Part shown: in pieces, positions 25,303 through 49,564 of the stretch
How positions within the stretch are numbered: position 1 is the stretch's first letter
How the letters are laid out: each line of letters starts with the position of its first letter
Virus record (IMG/VR): IMGVR_UViG_3300046786_000524
Coordinates: 1 to 49,564 of that record
Direction: 5' to 3' (one strand)
DNA length: 49,564 nucleotides
Source of the DNA: a virus
Taxonomy: Duplodnaviria; Caudoviricetes
Position numbers and translations under genes: made by a program
Notes under the pieces: generated by a model
What the model was told of the DNA's origin: nothing
What the model saw: the letters and a program-made list of their open reading frames with translations, nothing else
Databases searched by the model: none

Positions 25303-25629
25303 TTACCCGCCCAGGCCTTGGCCGTTGTTGCCGCCGCTCATGATTGTCGACGCACGGCCACCGCGAGAAGTAGCACCAGCCCGGCGACGCGCGCGCTGAA
25401 GCTCAAGTTCGTCAGGCATAGGCATCGCCTTATTCGCGGCCTCTTGTGCTGCAGTCAATCGGTCAAGCGCTGTCGTGTCAGGCGCCATCAGCATCGACAT
25501 GTCTTCAGCTGTACCCTTGAGAATCTTTTTTTGCGCGTTCAAATTCCAAGGATTAAGCGCAGCCTGACCAATGCGTGCCAACCGCTTCGGATTCACCGCG
25601 TTTTTGATTGATTTACCTAAACCGCTCAT
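25303..25629 (-). CDS. small virion protein between terminase and portal
   Basis: ATG 25629 overlaps the terL TAA; C-terminal RGGRASTIMSG…LGG is typical. Confidence 0.65.
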   Translation of the reverse strand: MSGLGKSIKNAVNPKRLARIGQAALNPWNLNAQKKILKGTAEDMSMLMAPDTTALDRLTAAQEAANKAMPMPDELELQRARRRAGATSRGGRASTIMSGGNNGQGLGG

Positions 25630-28322
25630 TATCTTCGTCTCCTGGCGTTCGCATGCCCTACGTTGACAGATGGACGATTTCCACCCTGCCACTGCTTGTA
25701 ATGTGTCGCCATGCGCGCGCCTTCGGTGTAGCACATGACAACCGCGTCACCACGGTCGGGTGAACGCCCTATTCGCTTTGCGACTTCTTCTTTCGGTTCG
25801 GCATGTATGACGTTTTTCCTGACCTCATAGTGCACTGCCGTCAGATCCGACAACAGCACCTGGTCAGGAGGTAGCGCAATTTGTGAGCCGCCCAATTGCG
25901 ACGGATCAAGCGCTTCACGAAACCGCCACAGGCATTCCGTTCTCTTGTTCGCGAATGTCAGTGTCCCGTCTTTTGTGCGAGCGCTTGAACCGGTCGCCCC
26001 TTTGTATGCAACCACCGGGTCATTGTTATCGTGAAAATGCTTGTATGCAGAGCCGCCGTAACCACCACCGCAGTCAATGATGATCAGTGCACCGTCCCGG
26101 CGATGCTTGACGATCTCGCCGCTGATATCTTTGCCGAGTGGCGTCTGAGATCCCGGAATAATTTGCAGCTCAGAAAACCAGCTGTCATACCTGGCCGCGA
26201 TAACGTTGTTGTCGGCCCCGCCTTGTGCGACATCTGCAGCGATCGCGCACATGGGGATACCAGCCGGCGGCATTGGCTTCCAGCGCGCTTGCGCCTCGAT
26301 GACCCATTGGGTAGGGATCAGCTGCCACGGGTGATCTTTCAAGCCAGCATCAAACCGGCCGTCGCGATACGCTTCGCGTAATTCCTTCGGCAGTGCGTCA
26401 AGAACACGTTCGTATTGACCATCTGCCGATAGATCTGGATTGTCAGAAAGCTTTGCTGGGATGAACGTGCGCGACTTCGCGTAGACGTCTTTGCCGCCTA
26501 TCTGGTGCGGCCCTGGCCCGTCAACCTCGATGTCAGCGCCGTCTTCGTCCGAGAGGAACCAGCGCAGTTCACCAGGCTTGGCAGGATTGTGATGCTTTGG
26601 ATCCAGCCACGGCGCCCAGCGTTTGATAACCCAAAGGCCTTCAGCCGACGTTGGCGGGTTACCGGTGCACACAACGCGGCAACGCTGGCCTTGAGTCGCT
26701 GACCGGTTCCAGATCGTGATAAACACGTATTGCGATTCAAGGAAGTCTGTAACCTCATCGAACACGATCAGGTCATGCGGGTCGCCCTTGTAGCGCTGCT
26801 TGTCCTGTTCCATTTCGCAGCCGCCGAACGTGATGTGTCGACGGTCATCGCGATAGACCAGATCAGAACCGTTCCACCCGTCACGATCGCCGTCGCGTAT
26901 CTTGCCGATGAATTCAGCGTCAGCCAGTTTTTTGGCGTCTTTGTTGTAGCGACGCAGGATCAGTGTGCGCTCATGCGATTCATAAGCAAGGCCACAGCCA
27001 AGGGCACTGTTGTGCGTTGTGATGAATGTCTCACCGACGCAATACAGGCCACCGACAACCGTGATGCAGTTCATCGGTACCGGTGCGCATGGCCGCACGC
27101 CAACAATGTAACGACGCTTGCACGTTGCACGCTCAGGGCTGCATTGGCGCTTCAGTTTCCGCGTCAGCTTGAAGGCGTCAAAGTCGGCAATGAACTTCAT
27201 GCGGAAATGATCAGCATGCTTTTCGCTTGCCATCGGCTTTTGCCGAATGGAGCACTTGATTCCCAGAGAGTTGATCAGGTGCAGCGCATCATGCGCGAGT
27301 GCCTTGTTGCTCAGCCCAAGCTCAATCTGACCGCGTTCGTCACATGTGCCATCTGTATCAAGAAGCCCACGCAGCAGCTCGCGACGCTGTTCAATGCTTG
27401 CCCGCAAATATTCAGGCGGAATCCTCTTTGTGCGAGGCCTTGCATCTAGTTCGGTAAATCGCCGAATCTGAACTTCCTGCTTGCGCCCTTTGTCTTTACC
27501 TTCAACGATAATTCCTGCCGCTGCAGGAAGATGCTTTTCGATATCGGCCCAATCCGCCGACATCATGATCAATTTGCCGGCCCTGGTATATCCGTCTCCA
27601 AGCCACAGCCCCAGCAGATATGGATCAATCGGCAGGGCCGCATGCGGGTGATCGATAGCCTTGATGACCTCGATCGAGTGGTTGAGCCTGCCGCCGCGAA
27701 CCGTCAGCGTTTCAAGAATGTCGCGCGTTGTTCTTATCGATCCAGCTGGAACCGCAATGTCATGCTGCCGCGCCTTGTTGATCGCTATGATCGATGACGA
27801 TACCCACGGCTTCTTGCTGGCTTGCTTTGCCCTGCTTGGTCTTGCTGCCTTGCGTTTTTCCCGCCACTCGGGGGATGAACGCAAAAGCCTGTCACGCTCC
27901 CGGTAATCCCATGTCAACCAGCGATGCCTGGCGTCAGCAACGACAATCTCACCAGTGCTGAACTCAACCTCATAAGCGTCTGGCTTATGTTCTGTCGGAT
28001 GCCGCCAGATAACCAGTACCGGCGCGCCTTCTGGCCCGTAGACGTAATCACCAGGCTTCAGGTCGCCATGCCGCTTGAAGCCGGTCGGGTCCGTTGAGAG
28101 CGGCACCGGAACCGGAGTGTTTTCGTCCAGAAGTTTCCCGCCGCCTGCCTGGCCGCCGTAAAACAGTTCGTCAGCCTCAGAAAACCAAGCGTCCGTTTGC
28201 GGCCCAGGGTTCGGCACAAACGTTGCCCCTGCCGTCGCCGTCATCGCTGTTTCGACGATCTCCTTTTGCACATCAGCTGGCAATGCAGCCAGCCGATTCA
28301 GGATGTCATCAAGTGGATTCAT
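25629..28322 (-). CDS. terL: terminase large subunit containing an intein
   Basis: Walker A GGQAGGGK|S split by the intein; Walker B IVFDE; CTGNPP; nuclease motifs ADVAQGGAD and SPDRGDA. Confidence 0.92.
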   Translation of the reverse strand: MNPLDDILNRLAALPADVQKEIVETAMTATAGATFVPNPGPQTDAWFSEADELFYGGQAGGGKLLDENTPVPVPLSTDPTGFKRHGDLKPGDYVYGPEGAPVLVIWRHPTEHKPDAYEVEFSTGEIVVADARHRWLTWDYRERDRLLRSSPEWREKRKAARPSRAKQASKKPWVSSSIIAINKARQHDIAVPAGSIRTTRDILETLTVRGGRLNHSIEVIKAIDHPHAALPIDPYLLGLWLGDGYTRAGKLIMMSADWADIEKHLPAAAGIIVEGKDKGRKQEVQIRRFTELDARPRTKRIPPEYLRASIEQRRELLRGLLDTDGTCDERGQIELGLSNKALAHDALHLINSLGIKCSIRQKPMASEKHADHFRMKFIADFDAFKLTRKLKRQCSPERATCKRRYIVGVRPCAPVPMNCITVVGGLYCVGETFITTHNSALGCGLAYESHERTLILRRYNKDAKKLADAEFIGKIRDGDRDGWNGSDLVYRDDRRHITFGGCEMEQDKQRYKGDPHDLIVFDEVTDFLESQYVFITIWNRSATQGQRCRVVCTGNPPTSAEGLWVIKRWAPWLDPKHHNPAKPGELRWFLSDEDGADIEVDGPGPHQIGGKDVYAKSRTFIPAKLSDNPDLSADGQYERVLDALPKELREAYRDGRFDAGLKDHPWQLIPTQWVIEAQARWKPMPPAGIPMCAIAADVAQGGADNNVIAARYDSWFSELQIIPGSQTPLGKDISGEIVKHRRDGALIIIDCGGGYGGSAYKHFHDNNDPVVAYKGATGSSARTKDGTLTFANKRTECLWRFREALDPSQLGGSQIALPPDQVLLSDLTAVHYEVRKNVIHAEPKEEVAKRIGRSPDRGDAVVMCYTEGARMATHYKQWQGGNRPSVNVGHANARRRR
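27009..28133 (-). mobile_element. class 3 intein with LAGLIDADG homing endonuclease (375 aa)
   Basis: Starts LLDENTPVP, ends ITTHN|S; block B HRW, block F MNCITV; LLGLWLGDG and LLRGLLDTDG motifs. Confidence 0.88.
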
Positions 28323-38705: not shown

Positions 38706-38888
38706 TCAGTGACTTCGCTCAATTCGAGGGGCCTGCTCCAACCCCAATAGTTCGCGCCGAACGTCTTCGTATTCCCGCATCTTTTGCCAAAGCGTTTTGA
38801 TTTCCTGATCTTCCGGGCACCGCAAAACAACACGGACGACCTGAATAATGAATTCGTTGTAAAGCTTGGCTTCCTGTTGCTGGCTCAT
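38706..38888 (-). CDS. hypothetical protein
   Basis: 60 aa, coupled to dnaB. Confidence 0.5.
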   Translation of the reverse strand: MSQQQEAKLYNEFIIQVVRVVLRCPEDQEIKTLWQKMREYEDVRRELLGLEQAPRIERSH

Positions 38889-40213
38889 ATGTCAAGCGCC
38901 TGTTTTCTGTATTGTTTTTTTGGCTCAGGGGCAGGCGGGAAGTATTCGGATCCCGGCTGAAAACGCATGTACCCAAAATACTGATCCAGCCAGAAGCTGC
39001 CCTTTTGGGAGTGCCGCGACGCTTCGCATATCAGTTCTGTTTTGCCTTCGTCGACGGTATGCAGGAAGAAGATCGCATCGGCGTCTTGCTCGATCTGACC
39101 GGAACCACGCAGGTCGGAGAGCTTGGGGCGGGCGTCAGTGCGGATCTCGATTGAGCGGTTCATTTGAGCAAGAGCAAGGACGGGAACATTCAGTTCCTTC
39201 GCCATACGCTTGAGCCCAGTGGACACCGAACCAATGCGAAGCGCGTCCGTTTCGCCGGAGGCGTTGACCAGCTGGAGATAATCGACGACGACAAAATCAA
39301 GCGGGCCCTTTGCTGCCATTGCCCGGCAACGCGCGCGGATGTCGGCAATAGTCACGTCACTGCCGTCGTCAATGAAGAACGGCAGGCCTTGAGTTTTTGC
39401 GACGTAATCGTTGAGTCGTGACCACTGAAAATCCTCAAGCTTTTTAGGATCTTTGATCAGGTGAAACGGGATGTTCGCGGCATTGGACGCCATCCGATTG
39501 ATCAGCTGGAAGGACGGCATTTCAAGCGAGAAGACGGCGACGGCTTTGCCCTGGTTAAGAACGGCTTGAGCGATGTTCAGCGCAAGAATCGTTTTGCCTT
39601 GCTTGGGGCGGCCGGCAAACACCAGCAGTTCCCCGCCGTGCATGCCGCCAGTGGCGTCGTCAATATCGGGAAATCCAGTAGACAACCCGGTAAGCCCTGA
39701 CTCTGAATTGAACACGCGGTCAAGCTGGTCATACCAATCACGCAGCGATTGCTTTGCAGCTTTCAGCCCTCGATCGGTTTTAACCTTGATAAGATCCAGA
39801 ACGGATTGCTGCGCCCTGGCGATCTTTTCGGATACGTTCATTGACGGGTCGTGGCATGACTGGCAGACGGTACGACCAGCCGCATCAAGTTTCCGCAGCG
39901 TTGCATACTCTTCGACGCGGGCCGCGTAGTGGGTAACGTTTGCCGCTGACGGGGTGTTTCTCATGACCTCAGCCAGCCAAACAGTCCAGTCGCCGGCTGG
40001 GGCAACGGTTTCAAGCCGGTCTGAGACGGCAAGGAAGTCCACTGCAGGCGTTTCTGAGGCCATACCCTGTAGGGTGGCATAGGCTTGCCGTGCGCGAAGG
40101 CTGTGAAGCGAATCCTCAGCCATCACAGCGGCGACGTCAGCGCACTGGCCAGGGTCTGTCAGCAAACCACCCAATACCGCAAGCTCAAGATCGTGGTTAA
40201 ACAATTCGCTCAT
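38885..40213 (-). CDS. dnaB: replicative DNA helicase DnaB-like
   Basis: GRPKQGKT, FSLEM, VVVDYLQL, LAQMNR, DLRGSGQIEQDAD. Confidence 0.93.
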   Translation of the reverse strand: MSELFNHDLELAVLGGLLTDPGQCADVAAVMAEDSLHSLRARQAYATLQGMASETPAVDFLAVSDRLETVAPAGDWTVWLAEVMRNTPSAANVTHYAARVEEYATLRKLDAAGRTVCQSCHDPSMNVSEKIARAQQSVLDLIKVKTDRGLKAAKQSLRDWYDQLDRVFNSESGLTGLSTGFPDIDDATGGMHGGELLVFAGRPKQGKTILALNIAQAVLNQGKAVAVFSLEMPSFQLINRMASNAANIPFHLIKDPKKLEDFQWSRLNDYVAKTQGLPFFIDDGSDVTIADIRARCRAMAAKGPLDFVVVDYLQLVNASGETDALRIGSVSTGLKRMAKELNVPVLALAQMNRSIEIRTDARPKLSDLRGSGQIEQDADAIFFLHTVDEGKTELICEASRHSQKGSFWLDQYFGYMRFQPGSEYFPPAPEPKKQYRKQALDI

Positions 40214-40219
40214 CGGTTA

Positions 40220-40948
40220 TCACTCCACGACCTTGAGAAAATTATCTTCACGCAGAAGGAAATCGAAATTCGCTCCCTCCCAAAATCCGTCTTTGTACTG
40301 GCGCCCGTTCATCCACGCCTCGTTGTGAGTCGCCAGCTTGAAATACTTGCCCCACCATTCGAGGTTTTTGGTTTCTGTCCCCAAATCCCAAATCTTCTTG
40401 ATCAGGCGCTTGCGCTTGTCGTTGCGAACTCTCACCAGCGGTCTGTTGAACGGCAAGGCAACGACCTCGTTGTACAAGTCAAAAATCTGGTCATACGGAA
40501 TCGCTGATGCTTTGGGTCTTATCGGAGTGACATTGGGTGGCGAAGGGGGCTCGTTGTCGTCTGCGTCAGCAGATGACAAATCTTTTTCTGTCTCTGTCTC
40601 TGTCTCTGTCTCTGGCATAGCATCTTGATAGCGGTCTGCTAGCGCATTGCTAGCATCTTGTACCACTTCAAAGAAACCGTTTAAAATCAACTCTTTAATG
40701 GTTGCCCTAATCGTCAGCTCATCAGAACGGAATCGCCAAGCCAGTTTTTTCTCGTCGACGGTGATAAGCCCCTCTGGATGCTCACTTGCAAGCAGCCAGT
40801 AGCACGGTGCTAGCGCTTTGCTAGCAAGCTGCAAAGCATGAAACTCATAGTTATCAAGCAGCGACTTATGGAGCTTGATCCAAGGCGGATTTCTATCCTT
40901 GTAATGTTGGAACTCGTTCCAGTTTTTGGGCTTGATAACCATGCTCAT
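40220..40948 (-). CDS. phage replication initiator (O-like)
   Basis: NWNEFQHYKDRNPPWIKLH N-terminus, ETETETE linker, ANFDFLLR…KVVE C-terminus; upstream of DnaB. Confidence 0.8.
   Translation of the reverse strand: MSMVIKPKNWNEFQHYKDRNPPWIKLHKSLLDNYEFHALQLASKALAPCYWLLASEHPEGLITVDEKKLAWRFRSDELTIRATIKELILNGFFEVVQDASNALADRYQDAMPETETETETEKDLSSADADDNEPPSPPNVTPIRPKASAIPYDQIFDLYNEVVALPFNRPLVRVRNDKRKRLIKKIWDLGTETKNLEWWGKYFKLATHNEAWMNGRQYKDGFWEGANFDFLLREDNFLKVVE
40615..40840. repeat. iteron-like repeats (likely replication origin) inside the initiator gene
   Basis: 11-bp periodic units GGCATAGCATC/TTGATAGCGGT/CTGCTAGCGCA/TTGCTAGCATC near 40615-40660 and GTGCTAGCGCT/TTGCTAGCAAG near 40807-40828. Confidence 0.55.
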
Positions 40949-41160
40949 CAGTCGGCCTCACTGGTTACGCGCTCATCCCAAATGGAATCATCAGCAACAA
41001 GGCGGGCCAACTCAGATGCAACCGCTTCCGCTTGACGCCGAGACAAAACGCAAATGACCTCGTTGCCATCCTCGTCGTACTGCAGGATGGAAATCCGATT
41101 TTCCTGATTGATGAAAATCTTTGTTTCGCGTGTCGATGGAAGGAAAAACATCCCTAACAC
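40948..41160 (-). CDS. hypothetical protein
   Basis: 70-aa ORF, TGATG-coupled to the initiator. Confidence 0.55.
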   Translation of the reverse strand: MLGMFFLPSTRETKIFINQENRISILQYDEDGNEVICVLSRRQAEAVASELARLVADDSIWDERVTSEAD

Positions 41161-41201
41161 CCCTCATAAAATCCCAAAGAAAAACGTCTACAATCAGAAA
41201 G

Positions 41202-41396
41202 TCAGGCTGCCGACTTCACTGTGGTAGGCGGGTCTTCAGCCTTCAGTTTTCCGTTTGTCAGTTTTTCAATTTGGATCTGACGCAGATGCGGGATGCCGTG
41301 TTTTTTCCATTTGTTGATCGCGCCAGGAGTAACGCCGCACTCGCGTGCCAGCGCTCGATAGGTGCGAAAATGGTCTTTTGCTTCTGCAAGAGTCAT
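41202..41396 (-). CDS. cro: Cro-like HTH regulator
   Basis: ALARECGVTPGAINKWKKHGIP…IEKLTNGKLKA; first gene of the divergent operon. Confidence 0.75.
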   Translation of the reverse strand: MTLAEAKDHFRTYRALARECGVTPGAINKWKKHGIPHLRQIQIEKLTNGKLKAEDPPTTVKSAA

Positions 41397-41404
41397 GAGA
41401 GATA

Positions 41405-41609
41405 TACCTAGTTGTGTACCTAGGTATATTCTTGCTTAAACTTTGGTGTATGGCAAGCAGGGATTGCAACTTTCAAAATTTACCAAGGTAAACATCAGGC
41501 ATACACAAGCCATATATCTAGGTATATTTTTTTGTGCACAACAGTTGACTAAAGTCGATACGAACATTAACCTAGGTATATGTCGCCGCATACCTAGGTA
41601 TCTGGCGAC
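41405..41609. promoter_or_regulatory. divergent control region with about six TACCTAGGTA palindromic operators
   Basis: Copies at 41405, 41417, 41481, 41515, 41569 and 41591; + strand promoter TTGACT(41545)-17 nt-TAACCT(41568) overlaps one operator. Confidence 0.7.
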
Positions 41610-41637
41610 TTCTTGAAAAACATCAGGGAGATCACCA

Positions 41638-41799
41638 ATGGTAACCCCACATCCATCGATCAAGAAGATGCCAGTCGTTCGCCTGCGCAGCAGCTACAAA
41701 GCCGTGTGGGTAGATGATCGCAATGAGCGTCTGCAAGCCGAAATCAAAACCGGGATCCGCAATGGTAACGCCATCGTTATCAAGGCCGGTGCGAAATGA
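41638..41799 (+). CDS. small basic early protein (53 aa)
   Basis: GGGAG RBS, ATG 41638, ATGA overlap with the next gene. Confidence 0.55.
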   Translation: MVTPHPSIKKMPVVRLRSSYKAVWVDDRNERLQAEIKTGIRNGNAIVIKAGAK

Positions 41800-42113
41800 A
41801 TCATTCAATCTGGCCAAAATTGCTTGTGAATTTGGACCTCAAACTTGATCGCGAATACAAACATGATGACGCAGACAGCTGCTTTCGCGCAGCAAACCGC
41901 ATCAGCACTCGCAGCAAATTCGTCAATCGCAAATTCATTCTCGCCAACTTTTGCAGGCCGGCCGCAATCGCAGCAAAACGCGACGAAATGCAGCAAATCG
42001 TTCGCGAAATAAAACGCATGAAATCAGGCGAATGTCCAACGTTGACAGCAGCATTGGCCGCTGATCTCACGCGCGTCAAAAAAGAAATCAAAGCGCTGGA
42101 AGCAGCGCAATGA
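41796..42113 (+). CDS. hypothetical protein
   Basis: 105-aa coupled ORF. Confidence 0.6.
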   Translation: MNHSIWPKLLVNLDLKLDREYKHDDADSCFRAANRISTRSKFVNRKFILANFCRPAAIAAKRDEMQQIVREIKRMKSGECPTLTAALAADLTRVKKEIKALEAAQ

Positions 42114-42331
42114 TCAACATTGACTACCACGCAAACAGCGGAATCGTTTCGCTGCAGGTCGATCTCGATTGCAATGCGCCGCAAATTTTCATCGGTGACC
42201 AAAACATTGGCGAGCTGATCCACAGTCACAATTTTTGGGAAATCGTCAGGCAAGCCGAAAAGATCGCAAAACAGGACGCCGATGACGAGCGCGGCGAATA
42301 CCTACACACAATGGGATACGGAAAACAATGA
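42110..42331 (+). CDS. hypothetical protein
   Basis: 73-aa coupled ORF. Confidence 0.6.
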   Translation: MINIDYHANSGIVSLQVDLDCNAPQIFIGDQNIGELIHSHNFWEIVRQAEKIAKQDADDERGEYLHTMGYGKQ

Positions 42332-43122
42332 CCTCAATAGTCGCGATCCGCGCATCAAGCCTGGCCGAGCTTTTCGATTGCCCTGCCAGATGGGAAGCAA
42401 AAAACCTGCTTGGAATGAGAATGCCGAGCAGCGGCGCCGCAACGCTGGGCACGGCCGTGCATGCTGGTACCGCAGTGTTTGATCAGTCCGTCATTGACGG
42501 ATCCGGGATCAGCATTGACGAAGCGGCCAGCGCAGTCGTAGATGCCATCTACAAGCCCGAGCAGGATGTTGCATGGGATGAAGACATGCAGCCCAAAACC
42601 GCCGAAAAGATCGCCCTGGCACTGCATACCAAATACTGCAGCGAAATTGCCCCAAAGCAGAATTATGTCGGCGTCGAAATCACATGCGAACGACTTGAAA
42701 TAACTGACCTTGGCATTGCGCTTACCGGCACAACCGACAGGATCCGCAAAACCGCAGAAGGCCTTGGCGTGTCGGATCTTAAAACCGGTGGCCGCGCGGT
42801 CGGATCCGATGGCCGCGCAGTGACATCAGGTCACGGCCCGCAATTGGGCGTTTATGAGTTGCTTGCAGAGCGATCCATTGGCCAGCCAATCACCGCGCCC
42901 GCTGAAATCATTGGCATGCAGACCGCCAAAACGACGCAGAAGGTCGGCACCGGCCAAATCAAAAACGCCAAAGCTGCATTGCTTGGCGATTCAGAATCTC
43001 CCGGATTGCTTGAGCATGCGGCCGGGATCATCCACGCAGGACGCTTTTACGGAAACTCGAAGTCAACGCTGTGCAGTGCACGCTACTGCCCCCGTTTTTC
43101 CACCTGTAAATTTAAAGGTTAA
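42328..43122 (+). CDS. PD-(D/E)XK (RecB/RecE-like) exonuclease
   Basis: DCPARW, LGTAVH, GTTDRI, DLKTG, QLGVY and a C-terminal Cys cluster; next to RecT. Confidence 0.8.
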   Translation: MTSIVAIRASSLAELFDCPARWEAKNLLGMRMPSSGAATLGTAVHAGTAVFDQSVIDGSGISIDEAASAVVDAIYKPEQDVAWDEDMQPKTAEKIALALHTKYCSEIAPKQNYVGVEITCERLEITDLGIALTGTTDRIRKTAEGLGVSDLKTGGRAVGSDGRAVTSGHGPQLGVYELLAERSIGQPITAPAEIIGMQTAKTTQKVGTGQIKNAKAALLGDSESPGLLEHAAGIIHAGRFYGNSKSTLCSARYCPRFSTCKFKG

Positions 43123-43126
43123 TCAC

Positions 43127-44197
43127 ATGAGCCAAGCCACAAACATCGCAGACCTGAAACGCACCAGCACCATGATCGCAAAAGATGCCGGTATCGGAAG
43201 CGTTAAAAAGTTTTTCGAGTCGCAGAAAGCAACCATGGCGGCAGTTCTGCCGAAACACATGGACGCCGAGCGCATGCTGAAACTCGCCCTGGGCGCGCTG
43301 CGTACCACGCCAAAGCTGATGCAGTGCCGCACAGATTCTCTCTTTGGTGCCATTGTGCAGTGTGCGCAATTGGGCCTTGAGCCAAACACCCCGCTTGGTC
43401 ATGCCTATCTGCTGCCGTTCGAGAACCGCCAGAAGGGCATTACAGAGGTGCAAATTATCCTTGGATATAAAGGCCTGATTGATCTTGCGCGCCGCTCAGG
43501 GCAGATCGTCAGCATATCAGCGCACGAGGTTTGTCAGAAAGACCACTTTGAATATGAGTACGGTCTTGATGAAAAGCTTGTTCATCGCCCCGCCCTTGGC
43601 GATCGCGGTCAAGTCATTGCCTTCTACGCAGCCGCAAAGCTTGTCGGTGGCGGGTATGCATTCGAGGTTATGAGCGCCAAGCAGATCGAAGAGATCCGCG
43701 ACGCAAGCCAGAACTACAAATTTGCAAAGGACAAAACCAAGACCGTTTGGGGTCAGCACTTTGTCGAGATGGGCCGCAAAACGGTACTGCGCCGCCTCTT
43801 TAAGTACCTGCCCGTATCAATCGAATTGGCAACCGCTTCCGCCCTTGATGACAGATCGTCACGCGGAGAAAGCCAAGGCCTGGATGAGGCATTGAATGGC
43901 GATTTCAGCGTCATCGACTCGGACGCAGAGCGTTACCAGGACGATAACGAAACTGTCGATACCAGCACAGGAGAGGTTACCCGCAACGAACCCAATGCCC
44001 TTGGCCTTGGCCTGCAGGACGCAATTGCAGCTGCGCGCCAGGGCGACATCGACACGGCCATGGACATCAGTCGCGGCCTGAACGAGCGCGATCGCCAAGA
44101 GCTTGAGCGGCATTTGCCTCTTGAACAAGCAGAAGCACCCGCAGAACCGCAACGCGCACCGGCACCACGCCAGCGCCAAGCCCGCAACCTCGACTGA
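43127..44197 (+). CDS. recT: RecT single-strand annealing recombinase
   Basis: AQLGLEPNTPLGHAYLLPF, GYKGLIDLARRSG, EMGRKTVLRRLFKYLP. Confidence 0.92.
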   Translation: MSQATNIADLKRTSTMIAKDAGIGSVKKFFESQKATMAAVLPKHMDAERMLKLALGALRTTPKLMQCRTDSLFGAIVQCAQLGLEPNTPLGHAYLLPFENRQKGITEVQIILGYKGLIDLARRSGQIVSISAHEVCQKDHFEYEYGLDEKLVHRPALGDRGQVIAFYAAAKLVGGGYAFEVMSAKQIEEIRDASQNYKFAKDKTKTVWGQHFVEMGRKTVLRRLFKYLPVSIELATASALDDRSSRGESQGLDEALNGDFSVIDSDAERYQDDNETVDTSTGEVTRNEPNALGLGLQDAIAAARQGDIDTAMDISRGLNERDRQELERHLPLEQAEAPAEPQRAPAPRQRQARNLD

Positions 44198-44240
44198 ACC
44201 ACGGGGCGGTGAAAGCCGCCCTATTTGGAGCGACTGAACA

Positions 44241-46109
44241 ATGAAAATTTCAAGAATCGAACTCACCAACTTTCAGGGGCTGCGCAGTGCGCGGCTACAG
44301 CTCACCAAGCCCGTGCTGATGGCTACTGGCGCCAACGGTGCCGGCAAGTCATCGCTGCTTGAAGGGATCCGCCTGGCGCTGCTTGGCAACCCCGAGCGTG
44401 TAGGCCTGAAAAAGGAATTGAGCAAGCTTGTCACCGAAGGCGCCAAGCGCGGTGGCGTAGACGTCATCACCGAGAACCAGCTGCACTTTGCCTACACACT
44501 GCCAGACGGCAAGCACACAGCGCCGGCAGAGCTCGGCAACCATATCGGCTTTGTGCTTGATGCCCAGAACTTTGCGCGGGCAACGCCTGATGTCAGACGC
44601 GCAACTTTATTTGCGCTGACCGGATGCAAGGTAGACGCCGCCGAGGTGACAAAGCGCCTGATCCAGCGCGGCGCAACGCAGGAACGCATTGACCTTGTGC
44701 TGCCAATGCTGCGCTCAGGATTCCCAGCCGCCGAGGGCTTTGCCAAAGAGCAGGCCACCCAAGCCAGAGGCGCCTGGCGCGCAGTGACTGGCGAAACCTA
44801 CGGCGAGAAGAAGGCAGATGGATGGAAGCCTGAAGCCATAGCATGCCCAGACCAGCAGGAAATGGCTGACCTGAATGACGCCGTGATTGCGCTATCGCAA
44901 GAGAAAGACCGGGCGCAAGAAACGCTGGGCCGGGCACGGCAGATCTCAGAGAGTATTGCCTCCGATCGCGATGCGCTTGCAAAGGCAATAGAGAAGGCGA
45001 ACCAGCTGCCACGTCACAAGCAAAAGCTTGCCGTCGACCAGGCAGAACTCGACAAGTGGGAGGCGAAGGTTGCAGAAGCCAAGGCCGCATACGTGCAGAC
45101 AAAGCCAGCCGCCCGCCCTACGGCCAAACTCGACAACGCAATGCTCGACGCCTTTGCGGTTGTAGCAAGTGAATGGCTGGATCTGGTCAGCAAGTCACAA
45201 GGCGTGGTCAATAACTTCAACGTTTGCGAAAACTGGGATCAGCATGCAGGCCTGATCAATCGCACCACCGCCCACGTGTCGACCTACAAAGCCCAGCACG
45301 GCGAACCGCTGACACAAGACGACAGCGACACGCCTGACGTTGCAGCTCCCAACGCGGCCGCACTGGAAGCGTCACGGAACATGTTTGCCCGAGCAGTAGC
45401 GAACGACTTGCGGGACATCGTTGCCGCTGAAGCCGCAGAAGAACAGGCCCAAAAACTTACTGACAAAATCAACGAAGTAAAAGAGATCCGGGTATCCGAC
45501 TTCGTGGAAGCGGTCAACGCAGCGACCGAAAAGCTGAAGGCCGCCGAGGCACGACTTGATGCGCTGAAGGATGCAGCCTACGCATTCACCACCGCACAAA
45601 CCAAAGAGGCAGACGCAGCCAGGCACCACGCCGACGTTGCCGGATGGCTTCTGATCGCTGACGCATTGTCACCCAGCGGGATCCCCGCCGAGATCCTGGC
45701 CGGCGCCCTTCGCCCCGCCAATGACGCATTGCACCAGGCCGCATCATTCGTTGACTGGCCGCGCGTGCAGATCAGCACCGACATGGAGATCACCGCAGCT
45801 GGACGGCCTTACGCCCTGCTCAGCGAGTCGGAGAAGTGGCGCGCTGACTGCCTGCTTGCCCTGACCATTGCAAAGCTGTCAGGCCTCAAGCTGATCGTTC
45901 TGGATCGCTTTGATGTGCTCGACATGCAAGGCCGGAATGATCTGATCGATCTACTGGATGACGCAGCCACCAGCTGCGATATCGAAACCGCCATTGTCGC
46001 CGGCACGCTGAAAACAGCGCCGACCGGCATGCCTGAAACCTTTGATGTCGCGTGGATCGAAAACGGCGAGATCAACAATCTGAAACTCGACGGAGAGCAA
46101 GCAGCATGA
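44241..46109 (+). CDS. Rad50/SbcC-like coiled-coil ABC ATPase
   Basis: Walker A GANGAGKS, long coiled coil, LSESE signature, IVLDRFD Walker B region. Confidence 0.8.
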   Translation: MKISRIELTNFQGLRSARLQLTKPVLMATGANGAGKSSLLEGIRLALLGNPERVGLKKELSKLVTEGAKRGGVDVITENQLHFAYTLPDGKHTAPAELGNHIGFVLDAQNFARATPDVRRATLFALTGCKVDAAEVTKRLIQRGATQERIDLVLPMLRSGFPAAEGFAKEQATQARGAWRAVTGETYGEKKADGWKPEAIACPDQQEMADLNDAVIALSQEKDRAQETLGRARQISESIASDRDALAKAIEKANQLPRHKQKLAVDQAELDKWEAKVAEAKAAYVQTKPAARPTAKLDNAMLDAFAVVASEWLDLVSKSQGVVNNFNVCENWDQHAGLINRTTAHVSTYKAQHGEPLTQDDSDTPDVAAPNAAALEASRNMFARAVANDLRDIVAAEAAEEQAQKLTDKINEVKEIRVSDFVEAVNAATEKLKAAEARLDALKDAAYAFTTAQTKEADAARHHADVAGWLLIADALSPSGIPAEILAGALRPANDALHQAASFVDWPRVQISTDMEITAAGRPYALLSESEKWRADCLLALTIAKLSGLKLIVLDRFDVLDMQGRNDLIDLLDDAATSCDIETAIVAGTLKTAPTGMPETFDVAWIENGEINNLKLDGEQAA

Positions 46110-46160
46110 GCGTCATCATATTCCGGCGACGGCTACGGCTACGGCGACGGCTCCGGCTAA
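46106..46160 (+). pseudogene. collapsed Gly-X (GDGYGYGDGSG) repeat gene
   Basis: TCC GGC GAC GGC TAC GGC TAC GGC GAC GGC TCC GGC TAA (46122-46160) is out of frame with the coupled ATG at 46106. Confidence 0.5.
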
Positions 46161-46221
46161 TAACGATTGATTTAATCGCCCGCCCGAGCGCATCGGGCAC
46201 CAACAAACTCAAGGGGTATTT

Positions 46222-46527
46222 ATGGGGCATGATGTAATTGGCTTTAAGCAAGCGCCAACCGACGAAAACGGAGAGACAAACAAAGAAATAGCATCGTTTT
46301 ATCGTGGTGCATTCAACAAACTGGGCAGAGAAATATACCGCGCGCTTGAGTGCGTTGAGATGGATTGCGGAGTGTCTGGGTGTGGTGGCTATTTGGAGTT
46401 TTCGCACGATCAGCTAAAAGCGGCTCACGATAGGCTTGCGGAACATTTGCAGCCCGAGCGTGATTTTTTGGCGGCGCTGATTGACTACACCAAAGATGGC
46501 AAGCCGTGTTTTATTGCGTTCTGGTAA
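46222..46527 (+). CDS. hypothetical protein
   Basis: 101 aa with AAGGGG RBS; last gene before the cassette array. Confidence 0.7.
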   Translation: MGHDVIGFKQAPTDENGETNKEIASFYRGAFNKLGREIYRALECVEMDCGVSGCGGYLEFSHDQLKAAHDRLAEHLQPERDFLAALIDYTKDGKPCFIAFW

Positions 46528-46589
46528 ACGCTTGCCCGTGCGTAACGGGCACCCTTTCGCATGTGCGTTGTGAGAGCGCACAGCCGAAA

Positions 46590-46645
46590 GAGTAACCCCA
46601 AGTTCAGCGGCCCGCCTGCGGGTCCGCTGCAACGCCCGGTTAGGC
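46590..46645 (-). mobile_element. attC-like site 1 (array-terminal)
   Basis: Minus strand GCCTAAC CGGGC GTTGCAGC GGACCCGCAGGCGGGCC GCTGAAC TTGGG GTTACTC. Confidence 0.8.
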
Positions 46646-46745
46646 CATGCCACCGACACCGCCCGATGTGGGCACCACACCAAGCTGGGCCGCCAGGCCG
46701 AGCGTTTGATTCAGAGGCTCACGGAGTGGGCCGGATAGGAGCGAT

Positions 46746-47252
46746 ATGAAGATTGCAGTGAGCGAGGAAAAAAAGGTACTTGACGCATGCTGCGGCAGCC
46801 GCATGTTTTGGTTCGACCGGAAGGACGCGCGTGCCGTGTTTGTGGACAAGCGCCGGGAGCGCCACACACTGCCAGACGTCTCGAGCAAGGGCGGCTCGCG
46901 CGATCTGGTGATTGACCCAGACCACCAAGCCGACTTCACCGCGCTGCCATTTGCCGATCAGACATTCGCCCTTGTCGTGTTTGACCCGCCTCACTTCGAG
47001 CGCAACGGCGCCACTGGCTGGGTCGGGCTGAAGTACGGAACGCTGAAGGGCGACTGGCGCGGGATGTTAAGGGCCGGATTTGCCGAGTGTTTCCGGGTGC
47101 TCAAGCCAGATGGCACGCTGATATTCAAGTGGTGCGAAGACGAGATTCCCGTGTCGCAGATTTTGGCATTGACGCCGGAGAAGCCACTGATCGGACACCG
47201 CAGCGGGAAGCAGCAGAAAACGCACTGGATCGCGTTCCTGAAAGGGGCCTAA
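46746..47252 (+). CDS. SAM-dependent methyltransferase (cassette A)
   Basis: VLDACCGSRMFW, VVFDPPH, ECFRVLKPDGTLIFKW; the stop TAA lies in the attC core. Confidence 0.85.
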   Translation: MKIAVSEEKKVLDACCGSRMFWFDRKDARAVFVDKRRERHTLPDVSSKGGSRDLVIDPDHQADFTALPFADQTFALVVFDPPHFERNGATGWVGLKYGTLKGDWRGMLRAGFAECFRVLKPDGTLIFKWCEDEIPVSQILALTPEKPLIGHRSGKQQKTHWIAFLKGA

Positions 47253-47302
47253 CCAGACAGCTAAGCGGCGGCGTAGCCGTCCGCTTGAGCGCCCGGTTAG
47301 GC
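47247..47302 (-). mobile_element. attC-like site 2
   Basis: Minus strand GCCTAAC CGGGC GCTCAAGC GGACGGCTACGCCGCC GCTTAGC TGTCTG GTTAGGC. Confidence 0.88.
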
Positions 47303-47326
47303 GGCACACGATAGAAAGGAATTGAG

Positions 47327-47998
47327 ATGGCAGAGAAAGTGGTGATCGGGAACGCGGAACTTTGGCACGGAGACTGCCGCGAGGTGCTGCCGCTGCTGCC
47401 TAAGCATGACCTACTGCTGACGGACCCGCCCTACGGGATTGGCACTGGCGCTGCATCTGTTGGAAGTGGCGGGAAGCTGTGGGGCGCACAGGATTGGGAT
47501 TTAGTCATTGCCAACGATGCGGTGCAGATGGCGCTTTCAAAAGCTGGCGCGGCGATTGTTTGGGGTGGGAATTACTACCCGCTGCCGCCTTCTCGGTGCT
47601 GGCTGCTGTGGGACAAAAAGCAATCGGACGCTTGGTATTCAACGGCGCACTTTGAGATGGCCTGGACAAACATGAACAAGAACGCCCACGCATTCCGAAT
47701 GTCGCAAGTAGAGGCGCATACAGGGATGAACAAAGAACACCCATCACAAAAGCCGCTGCGGCTGATGGCCTGGTGTTTGGACCAAGCTGGCAAGCCCGCC
47801 ACGGTGCTGGACCCGTTCATGGGGTCGGGTAGCACTGGCGTGGCGTGCGTGCAGCTTGGCAAGGCGTTCACCGGCATCGAGCGCGAGCGCAAGTATTTCG
47901 ATATTGCGTGCGAGCGCATAGCCCGAGCCCAAGCGCAAGGCCAGTTGCTGCCGCCTGAACCAGTGGCCGCGCCTGAACAACAGACGATGGAACTGTGA
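47327..47998 (+). CDS. beta-class amino (N6-A/N4-C) DNA methyltransferase (cassette B)
   Basis: HGDCRE, TDPPYG, HPSQKP, LDPFMGSGSTG. Confidence 0.9.
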   Translation: MAEKVVIGNAELWHGDCREVLPLLPKHDLLLTDPPYGIGTGAASVGSGGKLWGAQDWDLVIANDAVQMALSKAGAAIVWGGNYYPLPPSRCWLLWDKKQSDAWYSTAHFEMAWTNMNKNAHAFRMSQVEAHTGMNKEHPSQKPLRLMAWCLDQAGKPATVLDPFMGSGSTGVACVQLGKAFTGIERERKYFDIACERIARAQAQGQLLPPEPVAAPEQQTMEL

Positions 47999-47999
47999 C

Positions 48000-48057
48000 G
48001 CCTAACGCCTGAATTAACCGGCGCCGTCAGGCGTCCGGGTTGAATGAAAGGTTAGAA
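48000..48057 (-). mobile_element. attC-like site 3
   Basis: Minus strand TTCTAAC CTTTC ATTCAACC CGGACGCCTGACGGCGCC GGTTAAT TCAGGC GTTAGGC. Confidence 0.88.
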
Positions 48058-48059
48058 CC

Positions 48060-48278
48060 ATGGACAGACACGAATTACAAAAAGATGGGAAGCACCCTGC
48101 GCCATGCGCGAGGTTTTGTGAAGCCAACGCTTTCAAAATCGAACTTAGAAACCTGCAACTTGAAAATTTCAGGCTGCGCGAGGCAATATGCAGAACGCTA
48201 CAAGAAAACAAGCATCTTGCAGACGGAGAAGATTGCACGCTGATCCACATTAAGCGTGCGATGCAATCTAACCCCTGA
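48060..48278 (+). CDS. hypothetical Cys-containing protein (cassette C)
   Basis: 72 aa, HPAPCARFCEA…HLADGEDCTL; fills the space between sites 3 and 4. Confidence 0.65.
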   Translation: MDRHELQKDGKHPAPCARFCEANAFKIELRNLQLENFRLREAICRTLQENKHLADGEDCTLIHIKRAMQSNP

Positions 48279-48320
48279 ATTAAGCCGCGCCTTGGCGTCC
48301 GGTTGAACTGGCGGTTAGAC
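48266..48320 (-). mobile_element. attC-like site 4
   Basis: Minus strand GTCTAAC CGCCA GTTCAACC GGACGCCAAGGCGCG GCTTAAT TCAGGG GTTAGAT. Confidence 0.85.
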
Positions 48321-48348
48321 CCAGCCACAACACCGATAAGAAGACCAT

Positions 48349-48615
48349 ATGGACAAGGACATGCACCACACAGAGTGCCCCCATGGTGGGTACAAAGAAA
48401 AGATCGACCTGACCGTCGAACCATGGGCCACGCTGGCGCCCCTGTGCTGGGACAACCCGTCAGCGTTCCGCCTTGGCTGGGCGGCAGAAGAACATGGCGT
48501 CAAGCAGAACCCGTTCAAAAGCGAGTTCACGCGCGGCGTTTTTGAGGCGGGTCGCCAGAGATGCCGTGAGGCTGGCACGTCAAACACCAAGACGCTGCAT
48601 GCACCTGGGGTCTAA
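48349..48615 (+). CDS. hypothetical protein (cassette D)
   Basis: 88 aa; the stop TAA lies in the attC core. Confidence 0.65.
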   Translation: MDKDMHHTECPHGGYKEKIDLTVEPWATLAPLCWDNPSAFRLGWAAEEHGVKQNPFKSEFTRGVFEAGRQRCREAGTSNTKTLHAPGV

Positions 48616-48665
48616 CGGCTTGGTAACCGGCTGCCGCAGGCAGTCCGGTTGACCTGGTGTTAGGC
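48610..48665 (-). mobile_element. attC-like site 5
   Basis: Minus strand GCCTAAC ACCA GGTCAACC GGACTGCCTGCGGCAGCC GGTTACC AAGCC GTTAGAC. Confidence 0.85.
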
Positions 48666-48699
48666 CACTGGTTGAGAAACGAACGAAAGGACGACTGAC

Positions 48700-49302
48700 A
48701 TGGAATTTCAAGACTTCCCGAAGATGGCGCGGCTGACCCGCGAAGTGATCGTGACCGAGAAGATCGACGGCACGAACGCGCAGGTTTTCATTGGCGAAGA
48801 TGGCACACTGCTGGCCGGCAGCCGCACGCGCTGGATTACCCCGGCCGATGACAATTTCGGCTTTGCCGCGTGGGTTGAAGCGCACCGCGACGAACTGCTG
48901 ACGCTGGGGCCTGGCCGCCACTTTGGCGAGTGGTGGGGTGCCGGCATTCAGCGCCGGTACGGCTTGAGCGAAAAGCGGTTCAGCTTGTTCAACGTGCAGC
49001 GGTGGGCGTTGCACGGCACCGCGCCGAAGACCTACCCGACCGCCGACCCGCGAGTGACGCGCACGCAAGACGTGCTGCCACCCTGCTGCGGGCTGGTGCC
49101 GGTGCTGTATCAAGGCCCGTTTGACACTGCGGCAGTTGATCTGTGCATTGAAAGCCTGCGGCTCACCGGCAGCGTGGCCGCGCCCGGCTTCATGAAGCCC
49201 GAGGGCGTGGTGGTCTTCCACACGGCTGGCAACGTGGGCTTCAAGAAGACCGTGGAGAAGGACGAATTGCCGAAGGCTCTTGCCGCGCTGCAAGTGGCCT
49301 AA
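48700..49302 (+). CDS. RNA ligase, Rnl2-like nucleotidyltransferase domain (cassette E)
   Basis: Motif I TEKIDGTN, GSRTR, FGEWWG, FSLFNV, VPVLYQG, PEGVVV, FKK; the stop TAA lies in the attC core. Confidence 0.85.
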   Translation: MEFQDFPKMARLTREVIVTEKIDGTNAQVFIGEDGTLLAGSRTRWITPADDNFGFAAWVEAHRDELLTLGPGRHFGEWWGAGIQRRYGLSEKRFSLFNVQRWALHGTAPKTYPTADPRVTRTQDVLPPCCGLVPVLYQGPFDTAAVDLCIESLRLTGSVAAPGFMKPEGVVVFHTAGNVGFKKTVEKDELPKALAALQVA

Positions 49303-49353
49303 CGCAGAAGTCAGCGGCGCCGGCACGGCGTCCGCTGGACTGCCGGGTTATAC
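49297..49353 (-). mobile_element. attC-like site 6
   Basis: Minus strand GTATAAC CCGGC AGTCCAGC GGACGCCGTGCCGGCGCC GCTGACT TCTGC GTTAGGC. Confidence 0.85.
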
Positions 49354-49374
49354 GGCTGGAACTACGGAGTGACC

Positions 49375-49564
49375 ATGCTGGAACTGGACAAGATTCACTG
49401 CGGCGACAACTGCGACTTGCTCGGGCAACTGCCGCGAGAGTGCATTGACTTGGTGGTGACAAGCCCGCCATACGATGACCTACGCACCTACGGTGGACAC
49501 TCTTGGGATTTCTTCGGGGTGGCGTGGCAACTGAAGCGCGTGCTGAAGCCTGGCGGCGTAATTG
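49375..49564 (+). CDS. beta-class amino DNA methyltransferase, truncated by the window end (cassette F)
   Basis: GGAG RBS; MLELDKIHCGDNCDLLGQLPRECIDLVVTSPPYDDLR…RVLKPGGV. Confidence 0.85.
   Translation, partial: MLELDKIHCGDNCDLLGQLPRECIDLVVTSPPYDDLRTYGGHSWDFFGVAWQLKRVLKPGGVI

Follow-up and report, generated by a model that had tools for sequence, protein, structure and literature searches.

Six attC-type sites at the end of a phage early operon

The DNA analyzed here (the window) is the whole of virus record IMGVR_UViG_3300046786_000524, a linear stretch of 49,564 nt from a tailed phage that has an estimated completeness of 94% and ends inside a gene. An early operon on its plus strand starts at 41796, and the last part of this operon is an array of six attC-type sites, each lying antisense to the genes around it. 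Judging from sequence, these sites likely act as recombination sites at which the integron integrase, IntI, handles single accessory genes. The array is cut off by the contig end at 49564 and may continue beyond it. The six inverted repeats, of 55 to 58 bp, were remeasured and also recovered with an attC grammar parser, and all were at the positions given in an earlier note made from the sequence alone. The top strand of every site is the minus strand, and crossover is predicted at AA|C. Site 1 (46590..46645, 56 bp; crossover 46595|46596) is the last in top-strand order, and sequence of the phage backbone completes its degenerate R' box. Site 2 (47247..47302, 56 bp; crossover 47252|47253) includes the stop codon of gene 1 and is followed by site 3 (48000..48057, 58 bp; crossover 48005|48006) and by site 4 (48266..48320, 55 bp; crossover 48271|48272), which has an imperfect L box. 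Site 5 (48610..48665, 56 bp; crossover 48615|48616) includes the stop codon of gene 4, and site 6 lies at 49297..49353 (57 bp; crossover 49302|49303). Since the six sites fall within 2.8 kb, the array has the density of at least two attC sites within 3 kb by which phage clusters of attC sites lacking an integrase (CALINs) were defined in Qi 2023 (PMC9892861).

Read along the plus strand, a cassette starts with a hairpin body, continues with the gene that belongs to it, and closes with the initial six bases of the following site. One main gene was found in each of the five intervals, as the earlier note had stated, and the sixth gene is truncated by the contig end. For comparison, 209 loci were retrieved, mainly with the cargo genes, and 69 of them (a plasmid control included) carried at least one site. 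Gene 1 (46746..47252, plus strand) encodes a small DNA methyltransferase of 168 amino acids (phrog_954), with copies of 97 to 98% amino acid identity in loci L003 to L005 and L022, and gene 2 (47327..47998, plus strand) encodes an N6/N4 DNA methyltransferase of 223 amino acids (PF01555, phrog_67). Genes 3 (48060..48278, plus strand; 72 amino acids) and 4 (48349..48615, plus strand; 88 amino acids) encode proteins that were assigned to no family and that had no match at 0.9 or above in the protein atlas. Gene 3 extends 6 nt beyond the crossover of site 4; gene 4 has a copy of 95% amino acid identity in locus L208, where the array that holds it terminates in an attI-like site and intI. Gene 5 (48700..49302, plus strand) encodes an RNA ligase-family protein of 200 amino acids (PF09414, phrog_548), and the truncated gene 6 (49375..49564, plus strand) encodes a DNA methyltransferase (phrog_67). 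The cargo of related loci adds Lar-like, Mom-like, tRNA-guanine transglycosylase-like, PAPS reductase-like, RNase H, and HNH genes. From the known roles of these families, the cargo likely counters host restriction and RNA-cleaving defenses.

From the 49.6-kb window, the parser recovered exactly six sites, which scored 18 to 21 and in each of which the minus strand is the top strand; no score in 30 Markov-shuffled windows exceeded 16. Model R1, which was built from the six sites and matches them by construction, scored them at 48 to 64 bits on the minus strand and at 15 to 32 bits on the plus strand; all other stretches scored at most 10.2 bits. Both attC sites of a class 1 integron used as a control were detected by R1 and by the parser. 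In phage MW202573, a CALIN phage of Qi 2023, neither method gave a site; both therefore miss some attC sites. The R''/L''/L'/R' layout that the earlier note had read on the minus strand agrees with published attC anatomy in its boxes, spacers, and extrahelical bases. Published sites have central spacers of about 5 to 6 nt that are unpaired and lengths of about 57 to 141 bp (PMC5027507); the spacers here are of 4 to 5 bp and 5 to 6 bp, and the site lengths are at or just below the published lower bound. According to Nivina 2016, extrahelical bases occur at bottom-strand position 16 (usually G) and position 23 or 24 (T), 6 bp apart (PMC5027507). On the bottom strand, which here is the plus strand, G16 and T23 with 6 bases between were present in sites 2, 4, and 6, with departures in site 1 (C16/T23), site 5 (G15/T22), and site 3 (G16/T24, with 7 between). 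A second unpaired base, as previously claimed, was thus present in all six sites, at bottom-strand positions 22 to 24.

Pairing was maintained while the internal sequence changed, which bore out a further claim of the note. In a set of 39 distinct sites, taken from the window and from related contigs, the AAC/GTT of the paired R'' and R' boxes was invariant (39 of 39 aligned sites), 94.9% of L-box cells were paired, and two-sided changes were found in all six pairs, a level reached in none of 500 shuffles; these 39 sites had been chosen with the model of the six, a bias that favors covariation. Site 3 has a similarity of about 80% to attC sites of plasmid-borne class 1 integrons. Site 4 retains 5.5 of 7 L-box pairs, its left arm resembles that of site 3, and its right arm resembles that of the L208 site; it is likely a mid-body chimera. 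An assembly chimera of the whole array, joined through its repeats, is another matter and extremely improbable. Such an artifact would fit the X1 contigs, which break at sites 2, 5, and 6, and a linear record that ends in a gene. However, X1 pieces 45500-47291, 47278-48665, and 48641-49393 overlap and match the window without differences (X1 may be the source sample), a piece from another study (X3, 46523-46716) spans site 1 without differences, and the mean column identity of the six sites is only 72%. Contigs of two studies hence cross site 1 cleanly, and the chimeric assembly near 46590 that the earlier note had raised as a danger was not encountered.

We also considered the possibility that the hairpins are kept as RNA elements of the early transcript, for processing, attenuation, or translational coupling, with recombination being incidental. 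A stop codon precedes every site and the next leader follows it, and a 62-codon open reading frame (ORF) on the plus strand (46561-46749) runs through site 1 and has a stop codon that overlaps the start codon of gene 1, which suggests translational coupling across the site 1 hairpin. A remark in Qi 2023 that attC sites may hold weak terminators (PMC9892861) points the same way. Nevertheless, the six hairpins had no Rfam match, terminator calling gave none on the six repeats, and the conserved features coincide with those by which IntI recognizes DNA, so an RNA role as the main explanation is very unlikely. Immediately before the first crossover, a plus-strand stem-loop of the backbone (46548..46595) is shared with locus L001, the closest relative. 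In L001 (10954-11133), the same anchor stem, with a conserved base, is enlarged by a branched insert of about 130 nt and has no Rfam match. This stem-loop is possibly an undescribed structured RNA or an antitermination signal.

Cassette genes run against the attC top strand

All six genes lie on the plus strand, antisense to the attC top strand, whereas the genes of a canonical cassette array run along it; because of this polarity, we do not file the array as canonical. The strand assignment itself was controlled in two ways: the minus strand of site 3 matched the sense strand of the attC site that separates qacF5 from aadA5 in a class 1 integron, and R1 scored both attC sites of the class 1 control on the gene strand. 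The same polarity prevailed in related phages. Ribosome-binding-site calls on 156 distinct viral segments placed the gene on the bottom strand in 94, the top strand in 4, both strands in 14, and neither in 44. When 40 bottom-strand and 39 top-strand ORFs (from totals of 75 and 69 in 151 segments) were compared with PHROG, 18 of the 40 and none of the 39 matched, with bait families making up 10 of the 18 matches. At chromosomal intI genes, the first cassette was canonical at 16 of 27 loci, inverted at 3, and ambiguous at 8. Stop codon proximity was rejected as an orientation test, since attC has TAA on both strands and 133 of 228 sites were called "both." Two individual contigs departed from a uniform arrangement: L005/L127 holds separate clusters of both site polarities about 3 kb apart, and L237 (5600-6040; Actinomycetota bin) has a long canonical-looking array that ends in a site-6-like hairpin with an apparently inverted gene.

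The inverted polarity may reflect replication. Phage early genes are usually co-directional with the replication fork. According to Loot 2017, an attC bottom strand on the lagging-strand template favors excision, and placement on the leading-strand template is linked to low excision (PMC5371416). Canonical cassettes in the early operon would put the attC bottom strand on the leading-strand template; inverted genes would keep transcription co-directional with the fork and the bottom strand as the lagging-strand template. The recombinogenic bottom strand of the window array is the coding strand and would also be the lagging-strand template if the fork runs from the O-like initiator gene through the array. 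GC skew, which is positive over the array, was dropped as evidence for fork direction, being confounded by coding bias. The direction of the cassette genes also makes the integron cassette promoter (Pc) irrelevant, and a phage early promoter would drive cargo and integrase alike without any Pc. A consensus promoter scan of 41100-49564 yielded no plus-strand promoter.

Shared genes end at the predicted crossover

The earlier note had staked its reading on gene gain and loss falling at the G|TT point, and in relatives they did end at the crossover in most testable copies. The 3' end could be tested in nine distinct close copies of genes 1, 4, and 5, all of at least 85% DNA identity: six copies stopped at the crossover (+0/+1), and the remaining three stopped at +5, +16, and -10. 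Wastewater contigs departed from the window sequence exactly at 48272 and 48616; an X12 contig matched 48004-48272 and then departed. In L001, the last base of the contig matched 46595, the last position before the first crossover, a single observation that is consistent with a fixed anchor followed by variable content. Neighboring genes were different in every related phage examined.

A second set of observations concerns the ends of the cassettes. In viral segments, the R boxes that flank a gene were fully complementary in 117 of 156, versus 24 of 156 when the two ends of one existing site were compared, and the mean mismatch was 0.46, versus 1.77 when permuted, with 0 of 2,000 permutations as low. 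The five complete cassettes of the window had one R-box mismatch across the gene versus six across the site. Complementary gene ends would be expected if each cassette once existed as a circle; they do not by themselves fix polarity. Moreover, in 18 clusters of near-identical bodies (45 of 266 sites), the upstream flank was shared in none and the downstream flank was shared in 7, an asymmetry that is a prediction of bottom-strand recombination.

Phage-associated IntI and attI-like sites in relatives and candidate hosts

Two related viral loci that share cassettes with the window, L007 and L021, encode IntI proteins that exceed the TIGR02249 cutoff and in which the IntI-specific insertion was aligned, together with residues that we take to have the catalytic roles; L007 also carries a 90% relative of gene 1. 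With the L007 IntI as the query, 62 viral loci were retrieved. Upstream sequence of 2 kb or more was available at 44 viral IntI loci; upstream sites were in the polarity of the window at 28 of these and in the opposite polarity at none, and cassette strand calls at viral IntI loci were 22 bottom, 3 top, and 10 none. A conserved attI-like motif preceded intI in 32 of 61 viral loci and in L208. Otherwise identical attI-like sites had different sequences to the left of AAC (L265/L266, L271/L272, and L281 to L285), which is direct sequence evidence of turnover at the attI-like site. The full layout, in which early genes, inverted cassettes, the attI-like site, and intI follow one another on one strand, was found in related viral contigs. 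The contig end of the window falls inside the array on the side where these relatives carry attI and intI. The phage intI has a short ribosome-binding leader directly after attI, and a LexA-like box was found at none of 22 such viral intI genes versus 3 of 31 genome intI genes, a weak contrast. At L288, L291 to L295, L307, and L308, the layout of the viral intI loci was different: attC sites lie downstream of intI, and their top strand is the strand that encodes intI.

In a quick tree, 29 viral IntI proteins grouped together (SH-aLRT, 92) with none of 35 genome rows among them; the sampling favors such a grouping, since viral rows were selected by similarity to one viral IntI and genome rows were selected by hidden Markov model score. 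IntI was present in 99 of 251 genomes of the sampled order of candidate hosts. A search with the phage IntI at an E value of 1e-135 gave no match in 401 genomes of the order, and the five closest matches of a family-level search of 401 genomes had a similar attI-like motif; in four of them, from Rhodocyclaceae-family genomes, the phage-group intI adjoins a phage integrase. One prophage-like region (L364, 9042-11803, genome G577) combines early genes, one intact inverted attC site, an attI-like site, intI, and a convergent phage integrase, and it also holds a gene closely similar to one beside the site 6 body in L219. The phage-type IntI protein of G577 is identical to a database entry of a cultured Aromatoleum strain, which may offer a bench system.

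As for the 6% of the genome missing from the record, neither the window-start pattern nor the SbcC-like protein had a match in metagenome contigs, and only one of the ORFs in 1-2750 had a relative among the loci compared.

Exchange at the R'' edge and observations that weigh against IntI

Several observations speak against IntI-driven movement of the array. Neither a tyrosine recombinase nor an attI motif was found in the assembled 94% of the genome; among 49 array-bearing viral records, a full IntI was found in 2 and fragments in 3 more, with none in the 5 records that are at least 90% complete. No clean single-cassette excision joint was found in four runs (contigs, not reads), and 10 loci related by RecT or the SbcC-like protein had no site scoring at least 17 (one of them, L001, ends at the crossover). 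Some breakpoints fell in leaders, at +28, +41, and +90, and the predicted folding of site 2 showed no bottom-strand preference. Finally, the ligase gene is 99% identical in the window and L041, yet the upstream body is only 64% identical, and 15 of the 18 body clusters had more than one downstream partner. By strict IntI logic the body should travel with its gene, and recoupled bodies go unexplained by ordinary cassette movement. The rearrangeable cassette platform proposed in the earlier note stands in part. That the array is rearrangeable is supported by shared genes that end at the crossover, by complementary gene ends, and by the site 6 body found at an attI site (see below); a whole platform in this phage is not, since intI and attI were absent from the assembled part, and for the same reason we do not file the array as a complete integron. 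The array is real and likely functional. We suggest that IntI would use the AA|C crossover to remove and add accessory genes one at a time and that its source would likely be the host, a coresident phage, or the unassembled end of the genome.

The recoupled bodies point to a second edge. In four of five ligase copies, identity started within 2 bases of the GTT of R''. Since some short sites are cut by IntI1 on the top strand at R'', although by orders of magnitude more rarely than on the bottom strand (PMC5027507), we read the R'' exchanges as likely products of such rarer top-strand recombination, by which a body would gain a new gene at this edge. An identical trace would result there from microhomology recombination at the seven conserved bases. 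In addition, because site 4 looks chimeric and some breakpoints lie in leaders, RecT-type homologous exchange probably contributes and likely produces chimeric sites such as site 4.

These traces raise the alternative that the sites descend from attC but are now mere linkers for IntI-independent homologous or microhomology recombination by the phage exonuclease and RecT. Both enzymes are encoded in the array operon, no intI was found in the window, and the chimeric-looking site 4, the leader breakpoints, and identical inner hairpins with different outer arms all fit such exchange. However, homology exchange has no need of fixed extrahelical bases, L-box covariation, or complementary gene ends. 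Bodies were, moreover, never linked to the upstream gene and sometimes linked to the downstream gene, and the site 6 body occurs at a real attI site. We therefore regard the linker explanation as improbable, although less so than any of the other alternatives, and retain IntI recombination as the likely principal process.

Links to bacterial integrons

The body of site 6 was found, identical or nearly so, in many other contigs beside different genes, and identical inner hairpins were found with different outer arms. Its 24-base core occurred in 33 stretches of genome contigs, many of which may be phage sequence inside bins, and the adjoining gene was called inverted at 16, canonical at 4, both at 2, and neither at 11 distinct sites. 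The same hairpin core occurred in canonical bacterial cassettes (L215, L218, L221, and L239). The contig L234 contains bacterial genes, and its first cassette after intI and attI consists of the site 6 body, in identical form, and an inverted N6-methyltransferase gene; the second cassette is canonical and encodes a polyketide cyclase. Of the indirect evidence that IntI acts on site 6 and that such cassettes move between phage and host, L234 is the strongest piece.

Sharing of this kind could also mean that a host chromosomal integron gave rise to the array in a single capture and that the array has since been inert. The shared hairpin core and the resemblance of the sites to class 1 attC sites would agree with such a capture, but the cargo is phage-type and antisense, chromosomal first cassettes are mostly canonical (16 of 27), and neighbors that differ in every related phage contradict it; it is, if anything, even less probable than an RNA role. 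A broader model, which we put forward tentatively and hold to be doubtful, is that betaproteobacterial phages run an integron lineage of their own, with a phage IntI and attI ending the early operon and inverted counterdefense cassettes, and that the enzyme cuts either hairpin edge. Such a system would be a cassette factory and a route to cassette origin, feeding bacterial integrons as in L234. The origin of attC attachment to genes has been described as largely unknown (PMC5371416), and the body swaps at the R'' edge suggest one possible route. Integrons have been treated as bacterial devices; phages appear to use the same chemistry, with no need of Pc, for genes that are likely counterdefensive and appear to have hairpins, and one cassette or more, in common with bacterial integrons. 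Two recent preprints reportedly find that integrons stock antiphage defenses.

Relation to described systems

The suggestion in the earlier note that this might be an undescribed phage gene acquisition system does not hold as worded. The text of Qi 2023 reports 17 phage CALINs and 3 complete integrons, with IntI1 recombining 5 of 6 tested sites, and describes integrase-less attC clusters with methyltransferase cargo, recombined by IntI1, in virulent phages; it mentions no inverted genes (PMC9892861). In this account, TJE1 and PH101 are typical in structure, and P12002L has divergent attC sites (PMC9892861). Like the CALINs of TJE1, PH101, and P12002L described there, the window is phage DNA with several attC sites and methyltransferase cargo, and no integrase was found in its assembled part. 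The window array is shuffled from phage to phage and has ties to a phage-associated IntI/attI group, which sets it apart from those CALINs. In TJE1, furthermore, the detected sites have the top strand on the gene strand, whereas the window genes are antisense. Temperate-phage integrons of Vibrio and Shewanella resemble the related loci in that a phage genome holds intI, attI, and cassettes, but in that same account the Vibrio cases are captured pieces of host integrons and the Shewanella case has a host-like IntI and attI, whereas the present group has its own attI motif and phage-type cargo.

With betaproteobacterial chromosomal and class 1 integrons, the array shares attC anatomy, crossover position, and hairpin cores, and the phage loci share the placement of intI opposite the attC top strand with attI between. 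The bacterial cassette genes, however, run mostly along the top strand and away from intI, and the phage cassettes run toward attI and intI. The accessory region of lambdoid early operons is shuffled by Red/RecET recombination. The array resembles this region in following exonuclease and RecT genes and in holding small variable genes and methyltransferases, but its boundaries are structured attC sites with a fixed crossover base. Systematically inverted cassettes, a phage-specific IntI/attI group, and two-edge exchange, all of which the earlier note had missed, were not found in the literature searched, which left out most subscription journals; the annotation file of Qi 2023 may show the polarity of other CALINs.

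Genome setting and other features

Upstream of the array in the same operon, a PD-(D/E)XK exonuclease, RecT, and an SbcC-like ATPase are encoded at 42328..46109 on the plus strand. A Cro-like regulator, an O-like replication initiator, and DnaB helicase are encoded at 38885..41396 on the minus strand, divergent from the array operon, and the capsid, portal, terminase, and tail genes of the tailed-phage set are likewise on the minus strand. No close named phage relative was found for the capsid protein; the occurrence of the hairpin and of related integrases alone would indicate a betaproteobacterial host. The region at 41202-41800 is a lambdoid divergent control region with the Cro-like gene, and no recognizable CI repressor or integrase was found in the assembled part. 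Among the virion genes, 4880-14140 (minus strand) encodes a polyvalent protein of 3,086 amino acids with LPD22, ART-PolyVal, PBECR5, and GNAT domains, and LAGLIDADG homing endonuclease domains lie within the large terminase (25629-28322, minus strand), where an intein is likely. Finally, a short ORF with Gly-Asp-Gly-Tyr repeats (46106-46163, plus strand) corresponds to a much longer tract that precedes the same downstream sequence in L001 and may be a deletion remnant.

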